Below are positions 2,274 through 60,548 of a stretch of 64,000 nt of DNA, in pieces. Positions within the stretch are counted from its first letter, which is position 1. Each line of letters opens with the position of its first letter. The position numbers and the translations under genes are program-made. The DNA comes from Candidatus Poribacteria bacterium (GTDB lineage Bacteria > Poribacteria > WGA-4E > PCPOR2b), in contig CBDCUX010000005.1 in the NCBI GenBank assembly GCA_965222805.1, positions 2,978,777 through 3,042,776 of the forward strand, written 5' to 3'. Below the pieces are notes generated by a model. The model saw only the letters and a list, made by a program, of their open reading frames with translations, was not told where the DNA came from and ran no database searches.

Positions 2274-3101
2274 TTAGAAAAAAGGATTATGTGCTTTTTC
2301 TTCGCCGACTGTTGTGGCGGGCCCGTGTCCGGGAAAGAGCTTTACGTCGTCGGGAAGCGAAAGCAGGTAATTTTTGACCCCGGAGAGCAGATCGGTATAC
2401 GAAATGTTCGCACCCCCGACCGACCCTGCAAATAGTGCGTCACCGACAATCACTGTGGAACGGGTGTGGAAGCTGCAACCGCCGGGCGTGTGTCCCGGTG
2501 TGTCGAGCGTTTTCACGGAGAGTTGACCGACCGACACGTCATCCCCATGATTGAGGAGCCGAAGCTGTTGGGTGCTACGCGGCTGTGGCTCCCGTGCGTG
2601 GATGTATGTCGGGCAGCTCGTCGCCCGTTCGATCTCCATCAAACCGTTCGCATGATCACCGTGTGCGTGCGTCAGCAGAATCATGGTCGGCTTGACGCCG
2701 GTCTCTTCCACCTTCTGCAGCACATCATCTGGATGCGCAGCGGTGTCGATGATAGCAGCTTCGTTGGTCGCTTTGCACACTAAGAGGTACGCATGAACGG
2801 GCCATCCACCGACATCGGCTGTGATGGTGACGACCTCCAGCGCGTCGTCGTATCCTGGTGGGACCGGTTCGGGGCCCCAGCGTTCCATCGCAATATCCGC
2901 CAACCTTTCGCCGTTGAGATTGAGGCACACTGCGATTTTGTGGACCTGTTCCTCTGTCGGTTTCAGCGTGTAGTCTTCCATCTGGGACAGTTGTGCCTCT
3001 GCGAGTCCTGCTTGGGTTGCAACTTCACCCACGCTCAGACCGTTCCCTCGCCTTGCTTTTCCGATGATGTCGCCAAATTCGTCTTCAAGTGTGTAAGCCA
3101 T
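2274..3101 (-). CDS. MBL-fold metallo-hydrolase with N-terminal XRE-type HTH domain
   Basis: N-terminal GLSVGEVATQAGLAEAQLSQME (HTH). C-terminal part carries the metallo-beta-lactamase motif LLTHAHGDHANG plus TPGHTPG. RBS AAGGAG upstream of ATG at 3101. Confidence 0.75.
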   Translation of the reverse strand: MAYTLEDEFGDIIGKARRGNGLSVGEVATQAGLAEAQLSQMEDYTLKPTEEQVHKIAVCLNLNGERLADIAMERWGPEPVPPGYDDALEVVTITADVGGWPVHAYLLVCKATNEAAIIDTAAHPDDVLQKVEETGVKPTMILLTHAHGDHANGLMEIERATSCPTYIHAREPQPRSTQQLRLLNHGDDVSVGQLSVKTLDTPGHTPGGCSFHTRSTVIVGDALFAGSVGGANISYTDLLSGVKNYLLSLPDDVKLFPGHGPATTVGEEKAHNPFF

Positions 3102-3126: not shown

Positions 3127-3354
3127 TTATGGTAGATTTTAGAATTACTTAGACCCTCCCAATGCACAGCCAACCCCCTAAATCCCCAACTCCCCTGACA
3201 AGGGGACTCCCCCTGATAAGGGGGTAGGGGGGTTAGGGGAGCTTCTCCTCTTGTCTTTCCCCTCTTATCAGAGGGGTTCAGGGGGACTTTGGAAACTTCG
3301 CTAGGGTCGGAGTTATTGGCAAATGTCTACTTATTTCTCTAGTTCACCATAAAT
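3127..3354. repeat. MITE-like element, family A copy 1 (about 228 bp) with imperfect terminal inverted repeats
   Basis: Left end TTATGGTAGATTTTAGAA, right end TTCTCTAGTTCACCATAAAT (reverse complement TTTATGGTGAACTAGAGAA). Internal C-rich/G-rich hairpin modules CCCCTGACAAGGGG and CCCCCTGATAAGGGGG. Near-identical copies at 7463-7722 and 26177-26383, variant at 24848-24975. Confidence 0.8.
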
Positions 3355-3414
3355 AAAAAACCGAAGAAACCGAGTTTTGCCGAAAAAACTCGGTTTCTCT
3401 GAGCTGCTTTTCGC

Positions 3415-7462: not shown

Positions 7463-7722
7463 CTATGGGAGATTTTAGAATTACTTAGACACTTCCAATG
7501 AACAGCCAACCCCCCTAAATCCCCCTTATCAGGGGGACTTGATAATTAATCCCCCAACTCCCCTGACAAGGGGACTCCCTCTGATAAGGGGGCAGGGGGG
7601 GTTAGGGGAGCTTCTCCCTTGTCTTTCCCCTCTTATCAGAGGGGTTCAGGGGGACTTTGGAAACTTCGTGAAGGTCGGAGTTATTGGTAAATGTCTACTT
7701 ATTTCTCTAGTTCACCATAAAT
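7463..7722. repeat. MITE-like element family A copy 2 (about 260 bp, carries an extra internal hairpin module)
   Basis: Same termini and core as 3127-3354, plus an inserted module CCCCCTTATCAGGGGGACTTGATAATTAAT shared with family B. Its right end abuts the RBS (AAGGAG) and ATG of the PhyH gene at 7741. Confidence 0.8.
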
Positions 7723-8613: not shown

Positions 8614-8646
8614 ATTTTCGCTTTACTAGGCGCATTTGAGACAGTA

Positions 8647-8741
8647 TTTTGGGCAACCACAACGGTTACCCCTATATTGGGTCAATTTCTCTAGGGGTTG
8701 GGTTTCCCAACCCCTAGGGCGAGGGAACCTCGCGCCTACAA
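8647..8741. repeat. Cluster of three REP-like palindromes ending in CTAT/CCTAC
   Basis: GGGCAACCACAACGGTTACCC-CTAT, then CTAGGGGTTGGGTTTCCCAACCCCTAG (12-bp perfect stem), then GCGAGGGAACCTCGCGCCTAC. Confidence 0.65.
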
Positions 8742-8830
8742 TAGAGAGTTATCGGCGAATTATGGACACGCCTCACATAAACGTCAACACGCCCTACATA
8801 CCTTAAATTTTTGTAAGGAGAACAGTAGAA

Positions 8831-10246
8831 ATGGGACCAGGGGACTCGTTTTTTGAACAGATTAATCTCAACTTCGACAGAGCCGCTCAGCTCACCGACT
8901 ACCCGCCCGGTCTACTTGAGCAGATCAAAATCTGCAATAGCGTCTGTCACATGACATTCCCGCTCAGAAGAGATGATGGAGAGATTGAAGTCATCCATGC
9001 GTGGCGAGCGGAACATAGTCATCACAAACAGCCGACAAAAGGTGGAATCCGTTACAGTACGTTGGTCAATGAGGACGAGGTGATCGCGCTCGCCGCCCTG
9101 ATGACATACAAATGCGCGATCGTCGATGTGCCGTTCGGTGGGGCAAAAGGGGGGCTTCAAATCGATATCAAGAAGTACTCCGCCGCGGAATTGGAACGCG
9201 TCACCCGCCGCTATACGTATGAATTGATTCAGAAGAATTTCATTGGTCCCGGGATAGATGTTCCCGCCCCGGACTACGGTACCGGGGAACGTGAAATGGC
9301 ATGGATTGCCCACACCTATAACTCATTCACTCCAGACAAGTTGGACGGCTTGGCATGTGTGACGGGGAAGCCGGTGGATCAAGGCGGCATTCACGGACGT
9401 GCAGCAGCAACGGGTAGAGGCGTGTATTTTGGCATCCGAGAGGTGTGCAGTTTCGCAGAAGATATGAAGGTGCTTGAGTTGACGCCGGGCCTAGAAGGTA
9501 AATCGGTTGTCATTCAAGGATTTGGCAACGTCGGGTACCACAGTGCCAAATTTTTAGAAGAAGGTGGGGCGGTGATTGTTGGATTAGCAGACATGAGCGG
9601 TGCCATCTACAACCCGAAAGGATTAGCTATCAAGGAAGTTTACCAGCATCGACAGGAAAAGGATTCTCTTCTCAATTTTCCCGGGGCGACTAATCTCCCA
9701 AACTTAGCTGATGTCCTCGAACTGGAATGTGACATCCTCATTCCAGCGGCACTTGAAAATCAGATTACCCGCGAGAACGCTTCTCGAATCAATGCCAAGA
9801 TTATCGCGGAAGCCGCAAACGGCCCAACAACCCCCGAAGCAGATGACATCCTCAAGGCGAACGGGGTGTGGGTTATTCCCGATGTGTATCTAAATGCGGG
9901 AGGCGTTACCATCTCTTATTTTGAATGGCTCAAGAATCTTTCGCATGTGCGGTTCGGTCAGCTGCAAAGAGGTTTTGAGGAAAATAGGGACAGAAATCTT
10001 TTGACGGCAATGGAAGGCGTGTCGGGTCAGCAGTTTTCAAATGCAGAACGGGATCGGTTGGCACATGGCGCTACGGAAGAAGATTTGGTGGATGCGTCAC
10101 TTGAGGAAACGATGGTGACTGCATACCATGAAATCAGAAGGGAATCAGAAGCACTTGGAAAAGAGGCGGACTTGAGAACCGCGGCGTTGGTCATCGCTAT
10201 CCATCAGATTGCTCGATCTTATATGCAATCAGGAATCTTTCCGTAG
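8831..10246 (+). CDS. gdhA: Glutamate dehydrogenase (Glu/Leu/Phe/Val dehydrogenase family)
   Basis: 471 aa. Catalytic motif VPFGGAKGG and Rossmann GFGNVG present. Colinear with bacterial GdhA/RocG. Confidence 0.8.
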   Translation: MGPGDSFFEQINLNFDRAAQLTDYPPGLLEQIKICNSVCHMTFPLRRDDGEIEVIHAWRAEHSHHKQPTKGGIRYSTLVNEDEVIALAALMTYKCAIVDVPFGGAKGGLQIDIKKYSAAELERVTRRYTYELIQKNFIGPGIDVPAPDYGTGEREMAWIAHTYNSFTPDKLDGLACVTGKPVDQGGIHGRAAATGRGVYFGIREVCSFAEDMKVLELTPGLEGKSVVIQGFGNVGYHSAKFLEEGGAVIVGLADMSGAIYNPKGLAIKEVYQHRQEKDSLLNFPGATNLPNLADVLELECDILIPAALENQITRENASRINAKIIAEAANGPTTPEADDILKANGVWVIPDVYLNAGGVTISYFEWLKNLSHVRFGQLQRGFEENRDRNLLTAMEGVSGQQFSNAERDRLAHGATEEDLVDASLEETMVTAYHEIRRESEALGKEADLRTAALVIAIHQIARSYMQSGIFP

Positions 10247-10283
10247 TACATGTTACTGTGAAAAGGGGATCGACAGCGCTTCA

Positions 10284-10316
10284 AACCACCCGAAGGTTTC
10301 GCACCTTGGGGTGGTT
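10284..10316. terminator. Hairpin between convergent genes (gdh and epimerase), likely bidirectional terminator
   Basis: AACCACCC-GAAGGTTTCGCACCTTG-GGGTGGTT, an 8-bp perfect outer stem. Confidence 0.4.
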
Positions 10317-10358
10317 CTCTCCATAGCCACTCAATATCTTTAGTCCGCAGAGAAACCA

Positions 10359-11285: not shown

Positions 11286-11663
11286 ATAACGCAAGTTGCT
11301 AGGCAATCTATAGCTCGCGTTTTGATACCCGACACCTATCAGAAATAATCAAATTTACGACACACCTGTTGCCCCTCTGGGGCTTTTTGGATCGGGCAAA
11401 TTTGAGAAGATCCCGTGCCCGGGGATGCCCGACCTACGGGAGTGGTGCGCTTTGATACACACGTTGCCCCGTTGGGCTTTATGACTTGGGTGAGACACCC
11501 TCTGCTATGCATATTGCGCTCCTCTGGAGCACGGAGACTGGGTATATCTGCATTCTATAGACATATTGCTCCGCTGGAGCGGAAGGTAGGGCACTTGACG
11601 GGCGGTGGGACCTCGCCCCTACAGTCAAATCGATGGATTTTCAATGCCTAGCAGCTTGAATTA
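11286..11663. repeat. Family C tandem hairpin-repeat array, copy 2, preceded by an inverted REP (GTAGGTCGAG..CTCGAC at 11259-11285)
   Basis: Units ..GATACCCGACACCTATCAGAAATAA.., ..TTGCCCCTCTGGGGC.., ..TTGCCCCGTTGGGC.., ..GCGCTCCTCTGGAGC.., ..TATAGACATATTGCTCCGCTGGAGCGG.. The last unit and the trailing ATGGATTTTCAATGC are near-identical to the end of the array at 1077-1295. Confidence 0.6.
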
Positions 11664-11671
11664 CAATAACA

Positions 11672-11842
11672 GGACTTACGCAAATTTAGTATGCGGCACG
11701 AGATTTTTCTGTTTTTAACCCCCTAAATCCCCCTTATCAGGGGGACTTGATAACTAACCCCCTAACCCCCCTGCCCCCTTATCAGGGGGAGTCCCCTTGT
11801 CAGGGGAGTTGCAGGGGACTTATGAACCAACTGCGTAAGTCC
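11672..11842. repeat. MITE-like element family B copy 1 (terminal inverted repeats GGACTTACGCA)
   Basis: Left GGACTTACGCAAATTTAG, right GAACCAACTGCGTAAGTCC (reverse complement GGACTTACGCAGTTGGTTC). The core shares CTAAATCCCC, CCCCCTTATCAGGGGG and CCCCTTGTCAGGGG modules with family A. Second copy at 37866-38006. Confidence 0.75.
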
Positions 11843-11849
11843 TAAATAA

Positions 11850-16443: not shown

Positions 16444-16456
16444 ATTTCTATTGCCT

Positions 16457-16546
16457 GAGAAGGACGCAGATCCGCGTTCTCTACGAATTGCCTACGTTGC
16501 GCTAACCCGCTTAGACTTTGGGTCGGGCAAGATGTCCGACCTACAG
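16457..16546. repeat. REP-like palindromes (GGACGCAGATCCGCGTTCT-CTAC and GTCGGGCAAGATGTCCGAC-CTAC)
   Basis: Same CCTAC-terminated hairpin architecture as the other REP copies. Confidence 0.6.
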
Positions 16547-23834: not shown

Positions 23835-23848
23835 GGGGTGCCCGGTAA

Positions 23849-23872
23849 GGAACGCGGGTCCGCGTTCCCTAC
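23849..23872. repeat. REP-like palindrome GGAACGCGGGTCCGCGTTCC followed by CTAC
   Basis: 8-bp perfect stem, located between convergent genes. Confidence 0.6.
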
Positions 23873-24847: not shown

Positions 24848-24975
24848 TTATGGTAGATTTCAGAATTAATTAGACACCGTGGACAAGCGAGGTCAGTAAC
24901 CTTGTACGCAGAGTTACGGCACACGGAGTGTGCCTACTACTTTTAATGTCCATTTATTTTTAGAATTCACCATAG
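24848..24975. repeat. MITE family A variant copy (about 128 bp) with internal REP-like module
   Basis: Termini TTTATGGTAGATTTCAGAATTAATTAGACA ... TTTAGAATTCACCATAG match family A. The interior is replaced by GTTACGGCACACGGAGTGTGCCTAC, related to the 35178-35198 REP. It is followed at 24982-25006 by REP GGAACAACGATCGTTGTTCC-CTAC. Confidence 0.7.
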
Positions 24976-25071
24976 AAGCAAGGAACAACGATCGTTGTTC
25001 CCTACAGCCTCCCATCTTATTGGGGCGAATCCCTTGCTAATTGGTTGTTTTAGAAACAGGAGGAGAGATAT

Positions 25072-26176: not shown

Positions 26177-26383
26177 TTATGGTAGATTTCAGAATTAATT
26201 AGACATCCCCAATGCACAGCCAACCCCCTAAATCCCCCAACTCCCCTGACAAGGGGAGAAGATAAGAGGGGAGCTTCTCCCTTGTCTTTCCCCTCTTATC
26301 AGAGGGGTTCAGGGGGACTTTGGAAACTTCGCTAGGGTCGGAGTTATTGGTAAATGTCTACTTATTTTTCTAATTCACCATAG
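26177..26383. repeat. MITE-like element family A copy 3
   Basis: Same termini and core as 3127-3354. Its 5' end (TTATGGTAGATTTCAGAATTAATTAGACA) is identical to the variant copy at 24848. Confidence 0.8.
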
Positions 26384-26436: not shown

Positions 26437-27447
26437 ATGCGTTCTCACAATGACTTCCGCCGCTACCCCTTACTCATCGTGGTTGGTTGCATACTCACGA
26501 TGTTTTGCATCTCTTCCATCAATGCGGCTTCAATCAAGACCAGCTACAAGTATCAAGAGATTAAGCGGCTCCATAAAATGGTTGCCCAAAACAGTGAACC
26601 GGCAGGGATTAAGATGCTGATTCAGAAATCGCGTGCCTTTATCGCGGAGCATCCAAAATACAAACGGATTGATCAGGTCTACTACATCTTTGGTAATGCA
26701 CTGAACCAAGCAGGAGATACCGAGGAAGCGGCTAAGGCTTATCGACAACTTGTAGAGAATTATCCAAAAGCCACTTATTTCGCTGCTGCTCTGTTAGAGA
26801 TGGGATTAGCCTACGACCGGCTGGGGCAGCATGACAAAGCAGATGCAGCGTATCGTCAATTGGTTGAACACCCAAAATATGGCTCACGCGCGCCTGCGAA
26901 GACGGCGAAGCGGTTACTGGAACTAAAAAAGGAGGATCGTACCGGCGAGATTCATGCAAGATCCTCACCCAGAAATCGAGCGGATGGACTGGTTGGCAAA
27001 AAGGCAATCGCTTTTAACGTGACAGACCTCAACGGCAACGACCTGTCGTTGGAGAAATATCGCGGCGAGGTAATCTTGCTTGATTTCTGGGCGGTTTGGT
27101 GTGGACCGTGCATCGCTGAAATGCCTAACGTGAAACAGGTTTACGAGAAATATAAGGATGCGAACTTCCAAATTATTGGTATTAGCCTCGATCAGCATCG
27201 GAATACACTGGTGCGTTACCTAGAACAGCAGGGGATTACTTGGCCCCAGTTTTTCGATGGAAACGGCTGGCGGAATCAGGTGGCGGAGATGTATGGCATC
27301 AGTGCTATTCCACACACCTACCTCATTGATGGTGAAGGCGTGGTTCGTAAGGCAAATGTGCGAGGGAGAGCCCTTGAACCGGCGGTTGCCGAACTAGTCC
27401 GAGAAAACAACGCGAAATTGAAGGACGCCGATCCTACCGGGAAATAG
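26437..27447 (+). CDS. TlpA-family thiol-disulfide oxidoreductase with N-terminal TPR domain
   Basis: Signal peptide, TPR helices, then a thioredoxin fold with WAVWCGPC active site. Confidence 0.75.
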   Translation: MRSHNDFRRYPLLIVVGCILTMFCISSINAASIKTSYKYQEIKRLHKMVAQNSEPAGIKMLIQKSRAFIAEHPKYKRIDQVYYIFGNALNQAGDTEEAAKAYRQLVENYPKATYFAAALLEMGLAYDRLGQHDKADAAYRQLVEHPKYGSRAPAKTAKRLLELKKEDRTGEIHARSSPRNRADGLVGKKAIAFNVTDLNGNDLSLEKYRGEVILLDFWAVWCGPCIAEMPNVKQVYEKYKDANFQIIGISLDQHRNTLVRYLEQQGITWPQFFDGNGWRNQVAEMYGISAIPHTYLIDGEGVVRKANVRGRALEPAVAELVRENNAKLKDADPTGK

Positions 27448-27468: not shown

Positions 27469-28362
27469 CTAAGAACCTGTTTTAAAAAGAAAAACACTAC
27501 TCAAGCGTTAATGTTTACGTTTAATCATTGGAGGAGTCCATACTGACCCAATGAAAGGCATAAACATGACCCGAACAAACTATCCCACGGATTTGACCGA
27601 TGCCCAGTGGGAAAACCTATTACCCTATCTGCCAAAACCTTCACCATTAGGCAGACCTCTCAAGTGGGAGATGCGCTCAGTTATCAACGCTATGTTTTAC
27701 ATAGTCAAGTCAGGGTGTCAATGGCGAATGCTTCCTTATCAGATGCCACCGTGGCAAACGGTCTATTCCCACTTTAGAAAGTGGAAAGCCTTAGGTACAT
27801 GGCTTATGATTCATCAAGCACTTCATGAACAAACCCGTTGTGATATTGGCAAAGCACCCTCACCGACAGTAGCTATCATTGACAGTCAATCGGTCAAGAC
27901 GACTGAACTGGCAAATAGTAGGGGGTTTGATGCGCATAAGAAAGTCAAAGGCCGTAAACGTCATATAGTCACCGATACGATTGGCATTCCATTGGGAGTC
28001 GAGGTTACTGATGCCAATGTCAGTGATAACCAAGTCGCAATAGAGTTACTGACAGAAATCTTTAGTTGGCACATAACGATTCAGTTAGTCTGTGCTGATG
28101 CTGGCTATCGTGGCGAATTAGGCGACTATTTATACTTGACGCATCAGTGTCGATTGGAAATCGCTCCACCTCTTGGGCAATCGGGGTTTGTGGTTGTCCC
28201 ATTGCGCTGGATTGTGGAACGCACCTTTTCTTGGTTCGGTTGGTTTCGCCGATTGACTTTGGACTATGAACGCTCGGCTGAGACCGCTGAGGCGATGGTG
28301 TACATTGCTTCCATTTACTTGATGCAAAATCGTATCAAATGACTTTTAAAACAGGTTCTAAG
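27469..28362 (+). mobile_element. IS5-family insertion sequence (about 894 bp) with 19-bp terminal inverted repeats
   Basis: Left inverted repeat CTAAGAACCTGTTTTAAAA (27469-27487) and right inverted repeat TTTTAAAACAGGTTCTTAG (28344-28362) are exact reverse complements. Single transposase ORF inside. Confidence 0.8.
27551..28342 (+). CDS. IS5-family DDE transposase
   Basis: DAQWE..LLP...GRP.....V.NA..Y....GC.WR.LP, ..IDSQSVK.., ..ADAGY.. are conserved blocks of IS5/IS4-type transposases. 263 aa. Confidence 0.8.
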   Translation: MKGINMTRTNYPTDLTDAQWENLLPYLPKPSPLGRPLKWEMRSVINAMFYIVKSGCQWRMLPYQMPPWQTVYSHFRKWKALGTWLMIHQALHEQTRCDIGKAPSPTVAIIDSQSVKTTELANSRGFDAHKKVKGRKRHIVTDTIGIPLGVEVTDANVSDNQVAIELLTEIFSWHITIQLVCADAGYRGELGDYLYLTHQCRLEIAPPLGQSGFVVVPLRWIVERTFSWFGWFRRLTLDYERSAETAEAMVYIASIYLMQNRIK

Positions 28363-35204: not shown

Positions 35205-35905
35205 CATGATGTAATGTAATATACAACAGACTTTGATTCTGTCATGGAAACTTACTCCATATGAGTCTTACCCTAACCGCGTTGCTGGAAACAGCAGGGT
35301 AAAAAGCAAGGGAAAATGGCTTAGAAAACAATGAATGTAGACATCGACTATGAGCCCGACTAAACTGGCATGGTGAGTCAACCAACTGATGTCTGAAGCC
35401 TCGTGAACTCCAAACAGGTGAATCTACAAAGGGGACAGGCTTGGAAACCTGTCTGACAAGCCTGTAGCCAAAAGGCATGAGCTGATGATACTACATTGTA
35501 GGTATGTAGTGTTAGTAAGTCAATCGCTTCGGGGTAAAGTCAGCACCTAATCCAGTTATTGTGTATTACATGAGAATCATGGAGTCCCTAAGTCGTCTCA
35601 TTTGAGAAGATAAGGGAGAGGAGGACAGGTAGGTAGCTGAGTCCGATACTCACCTGTGCGATATGTAATGTATTAAACAGTTTACCAAGCATGTCCAGTA
35701 TTGTATACAGCATGGCTTGTATCAGTAAGACAGCAACAGGCGAAAATACCAGAAGGCTGGGTCGCTTTTGTTTTACAACCAGCAAGGCAAACTCTATACA
35801 ATAGGGAAAGCCGTGTGCGGTGAAAGTCGAACGCACGGTTTGGAAGCAGGGAAAATGCCGTGAGGCATCTACCTATGCTTACTACTATAAAGTTATTGTG
35901 ACGCG
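35205..35905. other. Roughly 700-bp ORF-free, lower-GC intergenic segment with several stable hairpins; candidate structured ncRNA or decayed gene
   Basis: No ORF of at least 60 aa on the plus strand; the minus-strand ORFs have implausible sequences. Hairpins include UACCCU..GCUG-GAAA-CAGC..AGGGUA (GNRA tetraloop) at about 35268-35312 and GACAGG-CUUGGAAA-CCUGUC at about 35434-35454. Confidence 0.3.
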
Positions 35906-35907
35906 GG

Positions 35908-36666
35908 TTAATCAATCTTTACATACGTATGCGTCAACGGTTCCCAACCGAGCAGTCGCTTGGCTTTTGATAGATTAATTTCTTCCTGTTCCTCGTCACC
36001 GGCAATGAATACGGCGTCAAAGCCTGTATGCTCGACGGAAAGCCCCGCAAGATAAGCCCGCGCAAGGTCTTCCTCATCGGTTACCCAGATATGGACCTGA
36101 TCGGACCTAGGCTGCCCGCGTTGTTCAATCCACTGCTGGCGGGTCCTAGGACCGGTGATTCGTAGGGCGATGATCGACATACCGTGTTCACGGCAGAAGT
36201 ATCGACAGATCCGCTCCCCAAAACCTTTTGTCAAGCCGTACACACCGGGGTTATCAAGGGGCACCTCTTCCTCAGACGGAAATTTATTGCGTGTCCGTTC
36301 ATGGACGGTGAACGTGCTCGTGTGCACACCGTGGGTGATACCCTCTTCTTTCGCCGCGTGTAACAGGATATGAAGTCCCATTGTGTTGACTTGATAGTTG
36401 GCGATGACATCATCAAAATCTGCTGCTGATGAGGCGTGATCGGTGGGACGACGCATAACCATGTAGATAAATGCGTCCATTCCCTTAAGCGCCTGCTGGA
36501 CAATCTCCGGGTCGGTTACGGAACCTTCGACATATTCGACGGTTGAATCTTTGGGCGGAGAGAGGTCAAGGATGCGAAACTGGTGGTGTGGTTTCATGTA
36601 GGGCAGCGTCATGGTTCCAACATGCCCTGCTCCTCCAACGATTAATACTTTCATAGCGAGTCTCAT
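35908..36666 (-). CDS. NAD(P)-dependent epimerase/oxidoreductase (SDR family)
   Basis: VLIVGGAGHVG glycine-rich Rossmann motif at the N-terminus. 252 aa. Confidence 0.65.
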   Translation of the reverse strand: MRLAMKVLIVGGAGHVGTMTLPYMKPHHQFRILDLSPPKDSTVEYVEGSVTDPEIVQQALKGMDAFIYMVMRRPTDHASSAADFDDVIANYQVNTMGLHILLHAAKEEGITHGVHTSTFTVHERTRNKFPSEEEVPLDNPGVYGLTKGFGERICRYFCREHGMSIIALRITGPRTRQQWIEQRGQPRSDQVHIWVTDEEDLARAYLAGLSVEHTGFDAVFIAGDEEQEEINLSKAKRLLGWEPLTHTYVKID

Positions 36667-37843: not shown

Positions 37844-37865
37844 TTTATTTATCCTTACCTCTTCA

Positions 37866-38006
37866 GGACTTACGCAAATTTAGGACGCGGCGCAAGATTT
37901 TTTTATTTTTAACCCCCTAAATCCCCAACCCCCCGGCCCCCTTATCAGGGGGAGACCCCTTGTCAGGAGAGTTACAGGGGGACTTATGAACCAACTGCGT
38001 AAGTCC
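37866..38006. repeat. MITE-like element family B copy 2
   Basis: GGACTTACGCAAATTTAGG ... GAACCAACTGCGTAAGTCC. Lies directly 3' of an MDR alcohol dehydrogenase gene, as does copy 1. Confidence 0.75.
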
Positions 38007-38020
38007 TACCCTTAAAATTG

Positions 38021-39105: not shown

Positions 39106-40521
39106 TTAAGTCGAGTTTGAACTGAGCCAGTAAGCGTAAAAACGCCCATTTCGCAGGGTAAAGCGGAGGCGGATGGTTCGTCCCAGAAATTGAGCGATAT
39201 TGCTCTCAGACCATGCAATCCGTGCAGCGGGGTAATCACCGTGAAGTCGGGCGGAGGCGGCGAGGGTATCACCATCGGTGGAAAGTATTTCAACGCCCAA
39301 CTCGCCGGTGGGCACATCGACATTGACGAAGAGCGAGTCGCCGGTCAGCCTAAAGGGCTGCGTGCAAATAACCCCAACTGCATTCCCGGCGTCAAGCGAG
39401 ATGAACCCATCACGCCGCAGCACCGCCAAACAGACCGCGCCGGTATCAGGATAGTAGTCGTCATATCCCGGCACTTCGCCGGAGGTGATGAAGGCATACT
39501 GTTTGGTGCCTGTGTAGTAGAACCATAGCTCGTCACCTCGCACGACAGCGTTGGAGGGACCGAGCAGCCCTTGCAAATCGTAAGCACCGCCACCCAACGT
39601 TGAGGTTTCGATGAACGGCTTGCGTTCACCAACGCGTATCCAGTTTTTCAAATCACGGCTACAGGCTACCTGAATGTTGTAGAAGCCGGTATAATCTCCG
39701 TACTGCCTAACACACTCCAGGATATATGGCGACAGGCGCAGCCTGTCAAAACCGGGCCAATCGGTAGGGACTTTGCCGGTGTGGTGGTACATGGACGGCA
39801 ATCCGATGTATATCCCTTCGTAGCGAAATACGCCCATATTGTAGATTTGTACGCTGTAATGTTCAGGTGTGTTGTATTCCGTTTGCCGGAGGTTGGGATT
39901 GGCGAGCCGTGCTTCGATGACATCTTTGCCCATTTCCTGATCCACTTCGTCGGCGTGAAAAACAACCCCATAGTCATCCCAGTTCTCAAAGTCCGTGCTA
40001 GTTGCCACGGCAAGCGACCTGCCGTAGGGACCGGAACGTTTCACTGTGTGGATGAATAAACCTTCCTTTTCGTTGTAGGAGAAGTTTCCTTCGTCTGAAC
40101 TTTGCACAGCGGGCACATTTAGTTTTGTCCAGTTCACGCCGTCCGGTGAGACCGCGAAACCCGCGTTGAGGAGTGCGGATTTATATCGCCTGCTCGGATC
40201 CGGATCGCTTGCGTCACGAACCGCCATTGGTCCCCCAATGTTTGGTCTGGGACCCGGCGTCCAGTGCAGCCCATCCGCACTGATGCGGTAACCATCGTCC
40301 GTCCCGATGACCCAGAACTTGTAAACCGATTCCTCCGGATCCCAAGTCGGTGCGGTGCGCGTTTGGATCGTCTGGTTCGGATCGGCACTCCGAACCACCG
40401 CGCCCCTCTTGGAGGGCTGGTGGAGCGTCCGGGTGAGGTTCTCCAAGCGTTCAATCCCGACATCGTCGAGAAATAGCTGCCGCTGGTCACACGGGATATT
40501 GAATTGCGCTGCATCGTTCAT
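39106..40521 (-). CDS. Putative glycoside hydrolase, beta-propeller fold (GH32/43/130-like)
   Basis: 471 aa. Start moved to ATG 40521 (AAGGAAG RBS). Asp/Trp-rich blocks (WDPEESVYKFWV, WDDYGVVF, GDELWFYYTG) typical of five-bladed propeller glycosidases. Family assignment uncertain. Confidence 0.45.
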   Translation of the reverse strand: MNDAAQFNIPCDQRQLFLDDVGIERLENLTRTLHQPSKRGAVVRSADPNQTIQTRTAPTWDPEESVYKFWVIGTDDGYRISADGLHWTPGPRPNIGGPMAVRDASDPDPSRRYKSALLNAGFAVSPDGVNWTKLNVPAVQSSDEGNFSYNEKEGLFIHTVKRSGPYGRSLAVATSTDFENWDDYGVVFHADEVDQEMGKDVIEARLANPNLRQTEYNTPEHYSVQIYNMGVFRYEGIYIGLPSMYHHTGKVPTDWPGFDRLRLSPYILECVRQYGDYTGFYNIQVACSRDLKNWIRVGERKPFIETSTLGGGAYDLQGLLGPSNAVVRGDELWFYYTGTKQYAFITSGEVPGYDDYYPDTGAVCLAVLRRDGFISLDAGNAVGVICTQPFRLTGDSLFVNVDVPTGELGVEILSTDGDTLAASARLHGDYPAARIAWSESNIAQFLGRTIRLRFTLRNGRFYAYWLSSNST

Positions 40522-40590
40522 GCAAAGCTTCCTTTCGTCCCTGCACATCGCAGGAGATCACAAAGAATAGATAACTCCACCTTCACACAC

Positions 40591-43672: not shown

Positions 43673-43707
43673 TTAAGTCCCTTCTCTCCACTTGGGGTAA
43701 GCGTATG

Positions 43708-43735
43708 GTAGGGAGCGCAGATCCGCGTTCCCTAC
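43708..43735. repeat. REP-like palindrome flanked by GTAG and CTAC (GTAGGGAGCGCAGATCCGCGTTCCCTAC)
   Basis: Both strands present the GTAG head. Confidence 0.6.
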
Positions 43736-60471: not shown

Positions 60472-60523
60472 GGTTCTAACCCTCCTCAAATCATTAGCTG
60501 TTGATTATTGAAAATGGTAGGTA

Positions 60524-60548
60524 AGGAACAACGATCGTTGTTCCCTAC
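60524..60548. repeat. REP-like palindrome GGAACAACGATCGTTGTTCC-CTAC
   Basis: Perfect 20-bp palindrome identical to 24982-25001. Confidence 0.65.

Follow-up and report, generated by a model that had tools for sequence, protein, structure and literature searches.

Two families of MITE-like elements in Candidatus Poribacteria and the palindromic blocks in their shared hairpin module

Poribacteria are uncultured sponge symbionts. A 64,000-nucleotide stretch of DNA from Candidatus Poribacteria, analysed here as a whole and called the window, raises the question of what six short repeats are doing in it: whether they are mobile DNA or cassettes kept for the regulation of their neighbours, whether they form one family or two, and how similar G/C hairpins came to lie in elements with different ends. 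The first-pass annotation of this DNA had read them as composite MITE-like elements of two families, A and B, built from shared hairpin modules. A full-text literature search that combined Poribacteria with miniature inverted repeats returned a single paper, which, judged by title and abstract, concerns the cultivation of uncultured microbes and not MITEs. The reading we consider best, with a probability of about 0.8, is that the six elements are MITEs of two unrelated families moved in trans by different DDE transposases, that the blocks in their common hairpin module, M1, are secondary, and that the elements are selfish DNA.

Two element families in the window and among Poribacteria

All six copies, four of family A and two of family B, were confirmed at the places first proposed for them, with slightly refined ends (Table 1); judged from further copies and from the parent insertion sequence (IS), B1 and B2 truly end 2 nt further out on each side. 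Copies of the two families contain no real ORF and, at 97-256 nt, stay below the limit of about 600 bp usual for MITEs. The family-A left terminal inverted repeat (TIR), TATGGTAGATTTTAGAATTAATTAGAC, gave exactly 4 matches in the window with up to 3 mismatches allowed, against 0 in 100 shuffles. The four copies have the left end TATGGTAGATTTYAGAATTAMTTAGAC and the right end GTCYAYTTATTTYTMKARTTCACCATA in common, or TA-TGGTAGATTT / TA-TAGTGGAT when written with the target; they start TATGGTAGAT and read TATGGTAGATTTTAG. Distinct and imperfect TIRs had been claimed for both families, a description that suits family A, with its 28-nt arms at 71% complementarity (TIR length about 27-28 nt), and not family B, whose 12-nt arms AGGACTTACGCA / TGCGTAAGTCCT are 100% complementary and reach 13 nt with YA/TR.

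Table 1. Elements and inserted blocks in the window (positions count from its first nucleotide)
Feature	Description	Positions	Strand	Basis or remark
A1	Family A, 224 nt including the duplicated TA at each end	3128-3351	+	TIR match, empty site
A2	Family A, 256 nt	7464-7719	+	Empty site in syntenic contigs
A3	Family A, 126-nt subfamily	24849-24974	+	Same TIRs, unrelated core, no GC hairpins
A4	Family A, 205-nt form (base form + 71-nt block)	26178-26382	+	Size-variant comparison
B1	Family B, 175 nt	11670-11844	+	5-bp duplication AATAA (11665-11669 / 11845-11849)
B2	Family B, 145 nt	37864-38008	+	Flanks CTCTT / CCCTT
A1 block	In M1 hairpin; M2, then right part of 71-nt block	3188-3278	+	Base form has only CTTAT there
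M2 in A1	47 nt, AACTCCCC...GGGGGGTT	3188-3234	+	
M2 in A2		7556-7603	+	
M2 in B1	Inverted relative to A1/A2	11764-11810	-	Absent from orthologous B copy in L197-L199
M2 in B2	Inverted relative to A1/A2	37927-37973	-	
71-nt block	AACTCCCC...GAGGGGTT, in A4 M1 hairpin	26239-26309	+	
Extra segment in A2	31 nt; rest of intact M1 + linker	7525-7555	+	Absent from orthologous L200 copy

Scanning one genome per species with the family-A left end, we found the TIR in at least 111 genomic stretches from 33 MAGs; among the matches listed, all were from Candidatus Poribacteria, with up to 18 stretches in a single 6.7-Mb chromosome. A cyanobacterial identity, as Nostoc SDR or Nezha elements, had been considered with the G/C hairpins and WD40 genes in view and was rejected because the listed genome matches were all poribacterial. 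A BLAST search of plasmids with A1 gave no match, and viral contigs scanned with a degenerate family-A TIR gave 0 matches. From approximately 0.95 Mb of Poribacteria DNA we recovered 104 end-paired A copies with a mean pairwise identity of 75%, 49 of them 135-139 nt long (consensus TATGGTAGATTTTAGAATTACTTAGACACTCCCAATGCACAGCCAACCCCCTAAATCCCCCTTATCAGGGGGACTTTGGAAACTTCGCGAAGGTCGGAGTTATTGGTAAATGTCTACTTATTTCTCTAATTCACCATA); the base form has 138 nt. The same ends also enclose unrelated cores, in a 101-108-nt subfamily and in the 126-nt subfamily that includes A3 and was also found in L039, L063, L074 and L078.

Related contigs revealed loci with and without an element. The A1 site was empty, as GGGGT-TA-AATGAAAAG, in the syntenic contigs L197, L198, L200, L201 and L202, and the A2 site was empty as GTTTAC-TA-ACAACAAGGAG in L197, L199, L201 and L202 and as GCC-TA-ACACAAGGAG in L198; the PhyH encoded in contigs syntenic with these loci is 94% identical to that of the window. 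Another A site was filled in L083 and empty in L088 (GTT-TA-ATT), and a further element was filled in L202 and empty in L200, so that four filled/empty comparisons (A1, A2 and two other copies) document the TA duplication of family A. Both A3 and A4 were present in L112, a 99%-identical sponge-metagenome contig from ENA, and the window PhyH has relatives assigned to Poribacteria in their source records. A metagenome scan with a 200-aa neighbour protein retrieved only relatives of at most 68% identity, too distant for empty-site calls, and an exact-protein look-up of four window proteins retrieved no record.

Because TA is duplicated on insertion, we infer that the family-A transposase is of the IS630/Tc1-mariner type; a DDE enzyme of this kind would mobilize the element in trans, with insertion at TA and duplication of it. 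The first-pass annotation had guessed at an IS630/Tc1 partner, and the TA duplication of family A is what one would expect of it; a matching transposase was not found, and family B proved to be of IS701 type instead. Searches of the approximately 0.95 Mb of poribacterial DNA, of plasmids and of viral contigs yielded no autonomous partner of family A. Inverted A-TIR pairs 600-3500 bp apart, at 112 loci, enclosed ordinary genes only (MscS, beta-lactamase, PhyH) and no transposase, and clustering of multicopy ORFs recovered an IS5 element and no IS630-like gene. The IS5-family IS in the window (27474-28358) was rejected as the partner, as its TIRs (GAACCTGTTTTAAAA) and TAA duplication differ from those of family A. 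A 471-aa ORF at 8831-10246, missing in relatives, was likewise discarded as a transposase candidate: it is glutamate dehydrogenase.

Family B has a base form of 97-98 nt, (C)AGGACTTACGCAAATTTAGCACGCGGCGCGAGATTTTTTTATTTTTAACCCCCTAAATCCCCCTTATCAGGGGGACTTATGAACCAACTGCGTAAGTCC(TA), with TIRs YAGGACTTACGCA...TGCGTAAGTCCTR. Direct repeats of 5 bp flank 8 family-B copies, and the target-site duplications (TSDs) of copies other than those in the window include TCCAT, ACAAA, AATAA and ATGTT. The candidate parent came from outside the window. An element of 1452 bp in L074 has family-B ends, TIRs beginning TAGGAGTTACGCAGTT... and a 342-aa protein that scores 383 bits against NCBIfam NF049921 (IS701-family transposase; cutoff 250); relatives of this protein are very numerous. 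IS701-family IS copies of 1040-1045 bp carry TIRs TAGGAGTTACGCAGTTGAG.../...AACTGCGTAACTCCTA and 5-bp TSDs, and the approximately 1040-bp IS occupies three places in one poribacterial chromosome, occurs in other contigs and is present in metagenome samples that contain the close strains of the window. Of 18 positions in its right end, CCAACTGCGTAACTCCTA, 17 are identical in that of the MITE, CCAACTGCGTAAGTCCTA; TAGGACTTACGCAGTTGG at the MITE end corresponds to TAGGAGTTACGCAGTTGA at the IS end; and the target duplication in the IS copies L204, L208 and L211 is 5 bp, the same length as in the B MITEs.

Given this agreement in TIR and TSD, family B is a deletion derivative of the approximately 1040-bp IS and an IS701-derived MITE, which would be moved by the transposase of that IS, an enzyme other than that of family A. 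MITE and IS have in common a TIR of 13-18 nt and the 5-bp target duplication. In contrast, the interior of family B (an M1 hairpin and a T-rich stretch) cannot readily be traced to that of the IS, resemblance to the IS is weaker in the left TIR than in the right, and no transposition of B was observed. No empty family-B site was seen; B1 and B2 were fixed in all relatives examined, B2 recurring, only a few SNPs apart, in contigs of four near-identical strains (L193-L196). The proposed MITE-like identity is nevertheless borne out by copies beyond the window, target-site duplications and empty-site polymorphism: far from being restricted to the window, the elements have further copies elsewhere in Poribacteria, and A1 and A2 have empty counterparts. 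Families A and B are genuine MITEs of Candidatus Poribacteria.

Palindromic blocks at one position in the M1 hairpin

The two families have in common M1, a 32-nt hairpin module, AACCCCCTAAATCCCCCTTATCAGGGGGACTT, that lies in the same orientation in the A and B base forms. In the window, the G/C hairpin motif CCCCTKAYMAGGGG (up to 1 mismatch) gave 21 strand matches against 0.13 expected, all inside the six elements, and CCCTAAATCCCC gave 5 matches against 0.37 expected. Shared modules had been ascribed to all four A copies, which does not apply to A3, as this copy has the TIRs alone in common with the others and lacks GC hairpins. They had also been described as reversed in family B, and here the account divides: the 47-nt double-hairpin block M2 is inverted, and it is the only part that is, whereas CTAAATCCCC runs the same way in both families. 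M2 is a block of 47-48 nt that reads AACTCCCCTGACAAGGGGACTCCCCCTGATAAGGGGGYAGGGGGGTT in A1 and A2 and is inverted in B1 and B2; no M2 turned up in the remaining 0.88 Mb, outside the window. Turning M2 around between its M1 flanks is beyond a simple conversion from A to B, which counts against a conversion step.

In the M1-bearing A subfamily, every size variant departs from the base form at a single place, the part of the M1 hairpin bounded by TAAATCCCC and CAGGGGG. What occupies this spot are GC-rich palindromic blocks of 22-91 nt with the ends AACYCCCC...GGGGRGTT, in either orientation. They include a 22-mer, AACCCCCCTGTCAAGGGGGGTT, and the 71-mer AACTCCCC...GAGGGGTT; other variants at the same spot comprise 24-33 nt of another hairpin type (CCCGAT...ATCGGG), further nested inside. 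The 71-mer is reversed relative to A4, between the same flanks, in L005, L029, L032 and both L102 copies, orientation being that of the element (one L102 copy lies on the minus strand). All 11 blocks with AACYCCCC...GGGGRGTT ends were in M1, and no block was found outside M1 in the approximately 0.95 Mb; hairpins of this type lay inside A or B elements in 84 of 88 cases, and the other four were element fragments.

Orthologous copies indicate when the blocks arrived. B1, 175 nt long in the window, has an orthologue in L197-L199 that is an 88-nt base form, and A2, with 256 nt here, corresponds in L200 to a 205-nt form without the 31-nt extra segment and the second M2 hairpin. That 31-nt segment, common to A2 and B1 (11733-11763 in the latter), amounts to a second M1. 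Because the orthologous B1 and A2 copies are shorter in relatives, the blocks must have been added in situ, after MITE insertion, at these two sites. The modular recombination first envisaged for the elements therefore survives in spirit, with modules that are secondary and change in place, and not as a free mix, since the changes concern a single hot spot within M1, the hairpin that both base forms carry.

Alternative origins, gene context and orientation

In the reading that we prefer, GC-rich blocks have built up secondarily, after insertion, at the one M1 spot, and one copy may have passed them to another through template switching or gene conversion, with the palindromic C-run/G-run stems as the seed. 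Both strands of such a stem carry the same sequence, so either block orientation would be possible. Another way to obtain the same pattern would be for the blocks themselves (22-mer, M2, 71-mer) to be ultra-small mobile elements that insert site-specifically, in either orientation, into the M1 loop of either family. They do look like discrete units with conserved inverted ends, the 71-nt unit lies either way round between identical flanks, M2 is found in two unrelated MITE families in opposite orientation, and M2 was gained at pre-existing B1 and A2 elements since the split from the relatives with 94%-identical PhyH. Inversion between the outer CCCC/GGGG stems, tried as a source of the two block orientations, fails to give the observed junctions: those that it predicts (TG on the left, no CA on the right) were unobserved, and because the CA dinucleotide has not moved to the other side, the flipped unit is the block itself. 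Mobility of the blocks is, however, hard to square with their confinement to M1 throughout the approximately 0.95 Mb and with the absence of a target duplication or a candidate enzyme. Copies with a block lack the 5-nt CTTAT of the base loop, as would be expected of replacement and not of insertion; each block type could, moreover, be one rare event amplified through MITE transposition. We regard mobile blocks as a tentative possibility, and template switching or conversion as a more likely block source than free-living mini-transposons. REPs are linked to RAYT tyrosine transposases, and the repeats as a whole could in principle be mosaic palindromes of the REP/BIME kind, dispersed by a RAYT or an IS200/IS605-type single-strand transposase instead of being DDE derivatives. 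Such an origin would accommodate the mosaic of small palindromic units, the CCCGAT...ATCGGG hairpins dispersed in the same genomes and the strong local orientation concordance described below, which spread of this kind could explain; against this stand the clean TA (family A) and 5-bp (family B) duplications and the long TIRs, which are DDE hallmarks, the match of the family-B ends to an IS701 element and the fact that no Y1/HUH gene was seen beside the copies and no RAYT gene came to light in the DNA inspected. We consider it very improbable, and the target duplications largely refute it.

Position relative to genes bears on a different proposal, that the elements are kept as regulatory cassettes, with outward promoters in the TIRs for the genes at 3101 (minus), 7741 (plus) and 26437 (plus) and hairpins that act as terminators or RNA stabilizers 3' of alcohol dehydrogenase (ADH) genes. 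The reported nearness of family A to gene starts holds within the window: A1 lies 26 bp upstream of the ATG of a metallo-beta-lactamase-fold gene (2274-3101, minus strand), A2 lies 21 bp upstream of the PhyH ATG (7741), and 54 bp separate A4 from the ATG at 26437. At 21-26 bp before the start codons, A1 and A2 split the RBS from the former upstream region and leave the genes intact. Folding predictions give the elements very stable RNA hairpins (for A1, a long hairpin of -94.6 kcal/mol, z = -4.2), and Correia elements offer an analogy, as they bear promoters (PMC5039591). In contrast, a consensus scan of the element ends detected no sigma-70-like promoter that faces outwards, the same type of scan gave the gene upstream of A1 a separate terminator at 3364-3399, and no T-run comes after the M1 hairpin. 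In the wider sample, the A copies are mostly intergenic (98 of 104), and they divide among divergent, convergent and tandem intergenic regions much as the background does; distances to gene starts vary widely (median 131 bp, 10th-90th percentile 22-568 bp, about 100 copies), and orientation relative to flanking genes shows no significant bias (22 versus 35, 43 versus 29). An Rfam search over the window at the gathering threshold gave no match on the elements, its sole hit being a group II intron domain at 35806-35882. B1 and B2 do sit 5 bp and 12 bp past the stop codons of ADH genes, as first noted, and that position is as far as the association goes: identity between the two ADHs is only 27%, and B1 and B2 have different target duplications, so we reject ADH targeting by family B and take the association for coincidence. 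A regulatory function as the reason why the elements persist thus seems unlikely to us. Selfish DNA tolerated in intergenic regions is the most likely status of the elements, and any effects on neighbouring genes, through promoters, terminators or RNA structure, would be a by-product. Such side effects of A1 and A2 on their downstream genes are plausible, because these copies would have landed between the RBS and the earlier promoter of the gene.

Neighbouring A copies tend to point the same way. Among A pairs more than 300 bp apart in the same 8-kb stretch, 31 had the same orientation and 4 the opposite one, and 18 of 20 multi-copy A stretches were fully concordant (permutation p ~1e-5). All six window copies are on the plus strand across 35 kb, with flanking genes on both strands. 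Family-A orientation was not associated with 8-kb GC skew, and orientation patterns along chromosomes, among the matches listed, are suggestive only. Such co-orientation is unpredicted by an ordinary cut-and-paste, TA-targeting MITE. A bolder combination would make the 22-, 47- and 71-nt blocks mini mobile units, parasites of parasites that enter the M1 loop of two MITE families in either orientation without TSDs, and would ascribe the co-orientation of A copies to strand- or replication-coupled integration; we think this doubtful.

Relation to known repeats and meaning for Poribacteria

Correia elements (CREE or nemis, of Neisseria) duplicate a TA target, as family A does in this analysis. 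The likeness extends to a size of approximately 100-150 bp with TIRs of 26-27 nt, to hundreds of intergenic copies, often right upstream of genes, and to a cognate transposase that is not known. Some poribacterial A-type ends even begin TATAGTGGAT, which equals the first 10 nt of the Correia TIR, printed as tatagtggattaa... (PMC5039591). Nonetheless, the 26-bp Correia TIR, TATAGTGGATTAA(C/A)A..., was not found as such: the agreement covers its first 10 nt, in some poribacterial variants only, the TIRs diverge past that point, and the window copies start TATGGTAGAT. Poribacteria are, moreover, another phylum, and the cores show no relationship; Correia elements are established to carry promoters, bind IHF and undergo RNase III processing, whereas family A is distinguished by many subfamilies with unrelated cores and by the hairpin-block hot spot. 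We treat Correia as the closest functional analogue of family A and not as the same family.

The blocks recall other small palindromes. The SDRs of Nostoc and other cyanobacteria were reportedly presented by Elhai et al. in 2008 as tiny GC-hairpin units, nested in other repeats, whose presence or absence varies between otherwise identical sequences. SDR units measure about 21-27 nt and are scattered over many unrelated positions, in addition to those that lie within other repeats. Very small GC-hairpin units nested in repeats are common to both; in contrast, the blocks described here lie in the M1 of two MITE families only, in a non-cyanobacterial host, with none of the dispersal typical of SDRs (11 of 11 blocks in M1, 84 of 88 hairpins in A or B elements). 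BIME/REP of enterobacteria and BOX of pneumococci likewise combine conserved end modules with a variable number and orientation of inner palindromes, yet they are without TIR-plus-TSD signatures, whereas the duplications seen here are of the DDE type. The elements are real mobile DNA of known kinds, a TA-duplicating MITE and an IS701-derived MITE; what is unusual is the shared hairpin hot spot.

In uncultured Poribacteria, mobile DNA is accessible from sequence only. Being abundant, confined to this lineage and polymorphic among close strains, the two families can serve as strain markers and document how sponge-symbiont genomes have recently changed. Copies that sit 20-50 bp before start codons are relevant to the annotation of promoters and 5' UTRs in MAGs. 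The block hot spot offers a compact natural system for the growth of palindromic repeats, with template switching and mini-transposition as the candidate routes. If the orientation concordance of neighbouring A copies holds genome-wide, it would point to an unrecognized strand bias in the integration or retention of a TA-targeting element.

Orientation and neighbours of family-A elements

Neighbouring family-A copies, the TA-duplicating MITEs of the window and of Poribacteria loci L001-L111, share an orientation in 31 pairs and are opposed in 4, well above chance, and in 18 of 20 8-kb stretches holding multiple copies all are concordant (P about 1e-5). Neither gene direction nor local GC skew accounts for this co-orientation across the window, with all six of its MITE copies, and these loci. 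In syntenic contigs of relatives, the empty A1 site has a different family-A member, of a subfamily of about 105 nt with the end TATAGTAGATTTTAGAATTAATGAGAC, at a distance of roughly 85 bp. L198 holds a degraded copy of this member, and L200 (about 1445) lacks it, with the empty site reading GAAAG-TA-AAGATGG.

Features of the window and of syntenic contigs
Feature	Position	Details
29-nt palindromic repeat GGTAGGGAACGCGGATCCGCGTTCCCTAC	16456-16484, 23844-23872, 24977-25005, 43707-43735, 60520-60548	n=5, intergenic; a repeat family of its own
Small-hairpin clusters, type NNGCNCCTCTGGNGCNN	1140-1270, 11360-11590	e.g. CGCTCCGCTGGAGCG, GCCCCTCTGGGGC
IS5-family insertion sequence	27474-28358	terminal inverted repeats GAACCTGTTTTAAAA; target duplication TAA
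Glutamate dehydrogenase gene	8831-10246	between PhyH and epimerase genes (region 8614-10358)
Rfam group II intron match, RF00029	35806-35882	+ strand; 55 bits
Family-A member, about 105-nt subfamily	about 1657-1790	in L197, L201 and L202

Small hairpins, palindromes and a group II intron match

One copy of the 29-nt palindrome directly adjoins A3, and its hairpin is also found within B-type elements (IS701-derived MITEs) of other Poribacteria. The small-hairpin clusters build a 101-nt repeat, with 76% identity between the copies of the two window regions. A further hairpin family, CCCGAT-N3-5-ATCGGG, has inserted into the loops or stems of hairpins that belong to several subfamilies of MITE (L012, L024, L061, L062, L064, L086 and other loci), in some cases nested two deep; it has no copy within the 64-kb window. 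In contrast to the GC-rich palindromic blocks added inside the shared 32-nt module M1, 11 of 26 of these hairpins lie outside family-A and family-B elements. The group II intron match is intergenic and adjoins an epimerase-like gene (35908-36666).

Differences between close lineages and the IS5-family element

The gap between the PhyH and epimerase genes spans only about 165 bp in L197-L199, whereas the window carries the glutamate dehydrogenase gene there, which points to a 1.6-kb difference in gene content between close lineages. Upstream of the ADH gene adjoining B2, the near-identical strain contigs L193 and L194 have a phage-integrase-family gene, and at this position the window (39106-40548) and L195 carry one whose product is about 471-480 aa long, from a different gene.

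The IS5-family element contains an ORF (27551-28342; 263 aa) with matches to DUF4096 and DDE_Tnp_1 and a score of 226 bits to NF033580. Copies 89% identical to it are present in OZ252032.1 (L076, L078), and one copy splits a family-A MITE in L105. The strain contig L112, 99% identical to the window, lacks the element at precisely the corresponding position, so its insertion in the window is a recent event.
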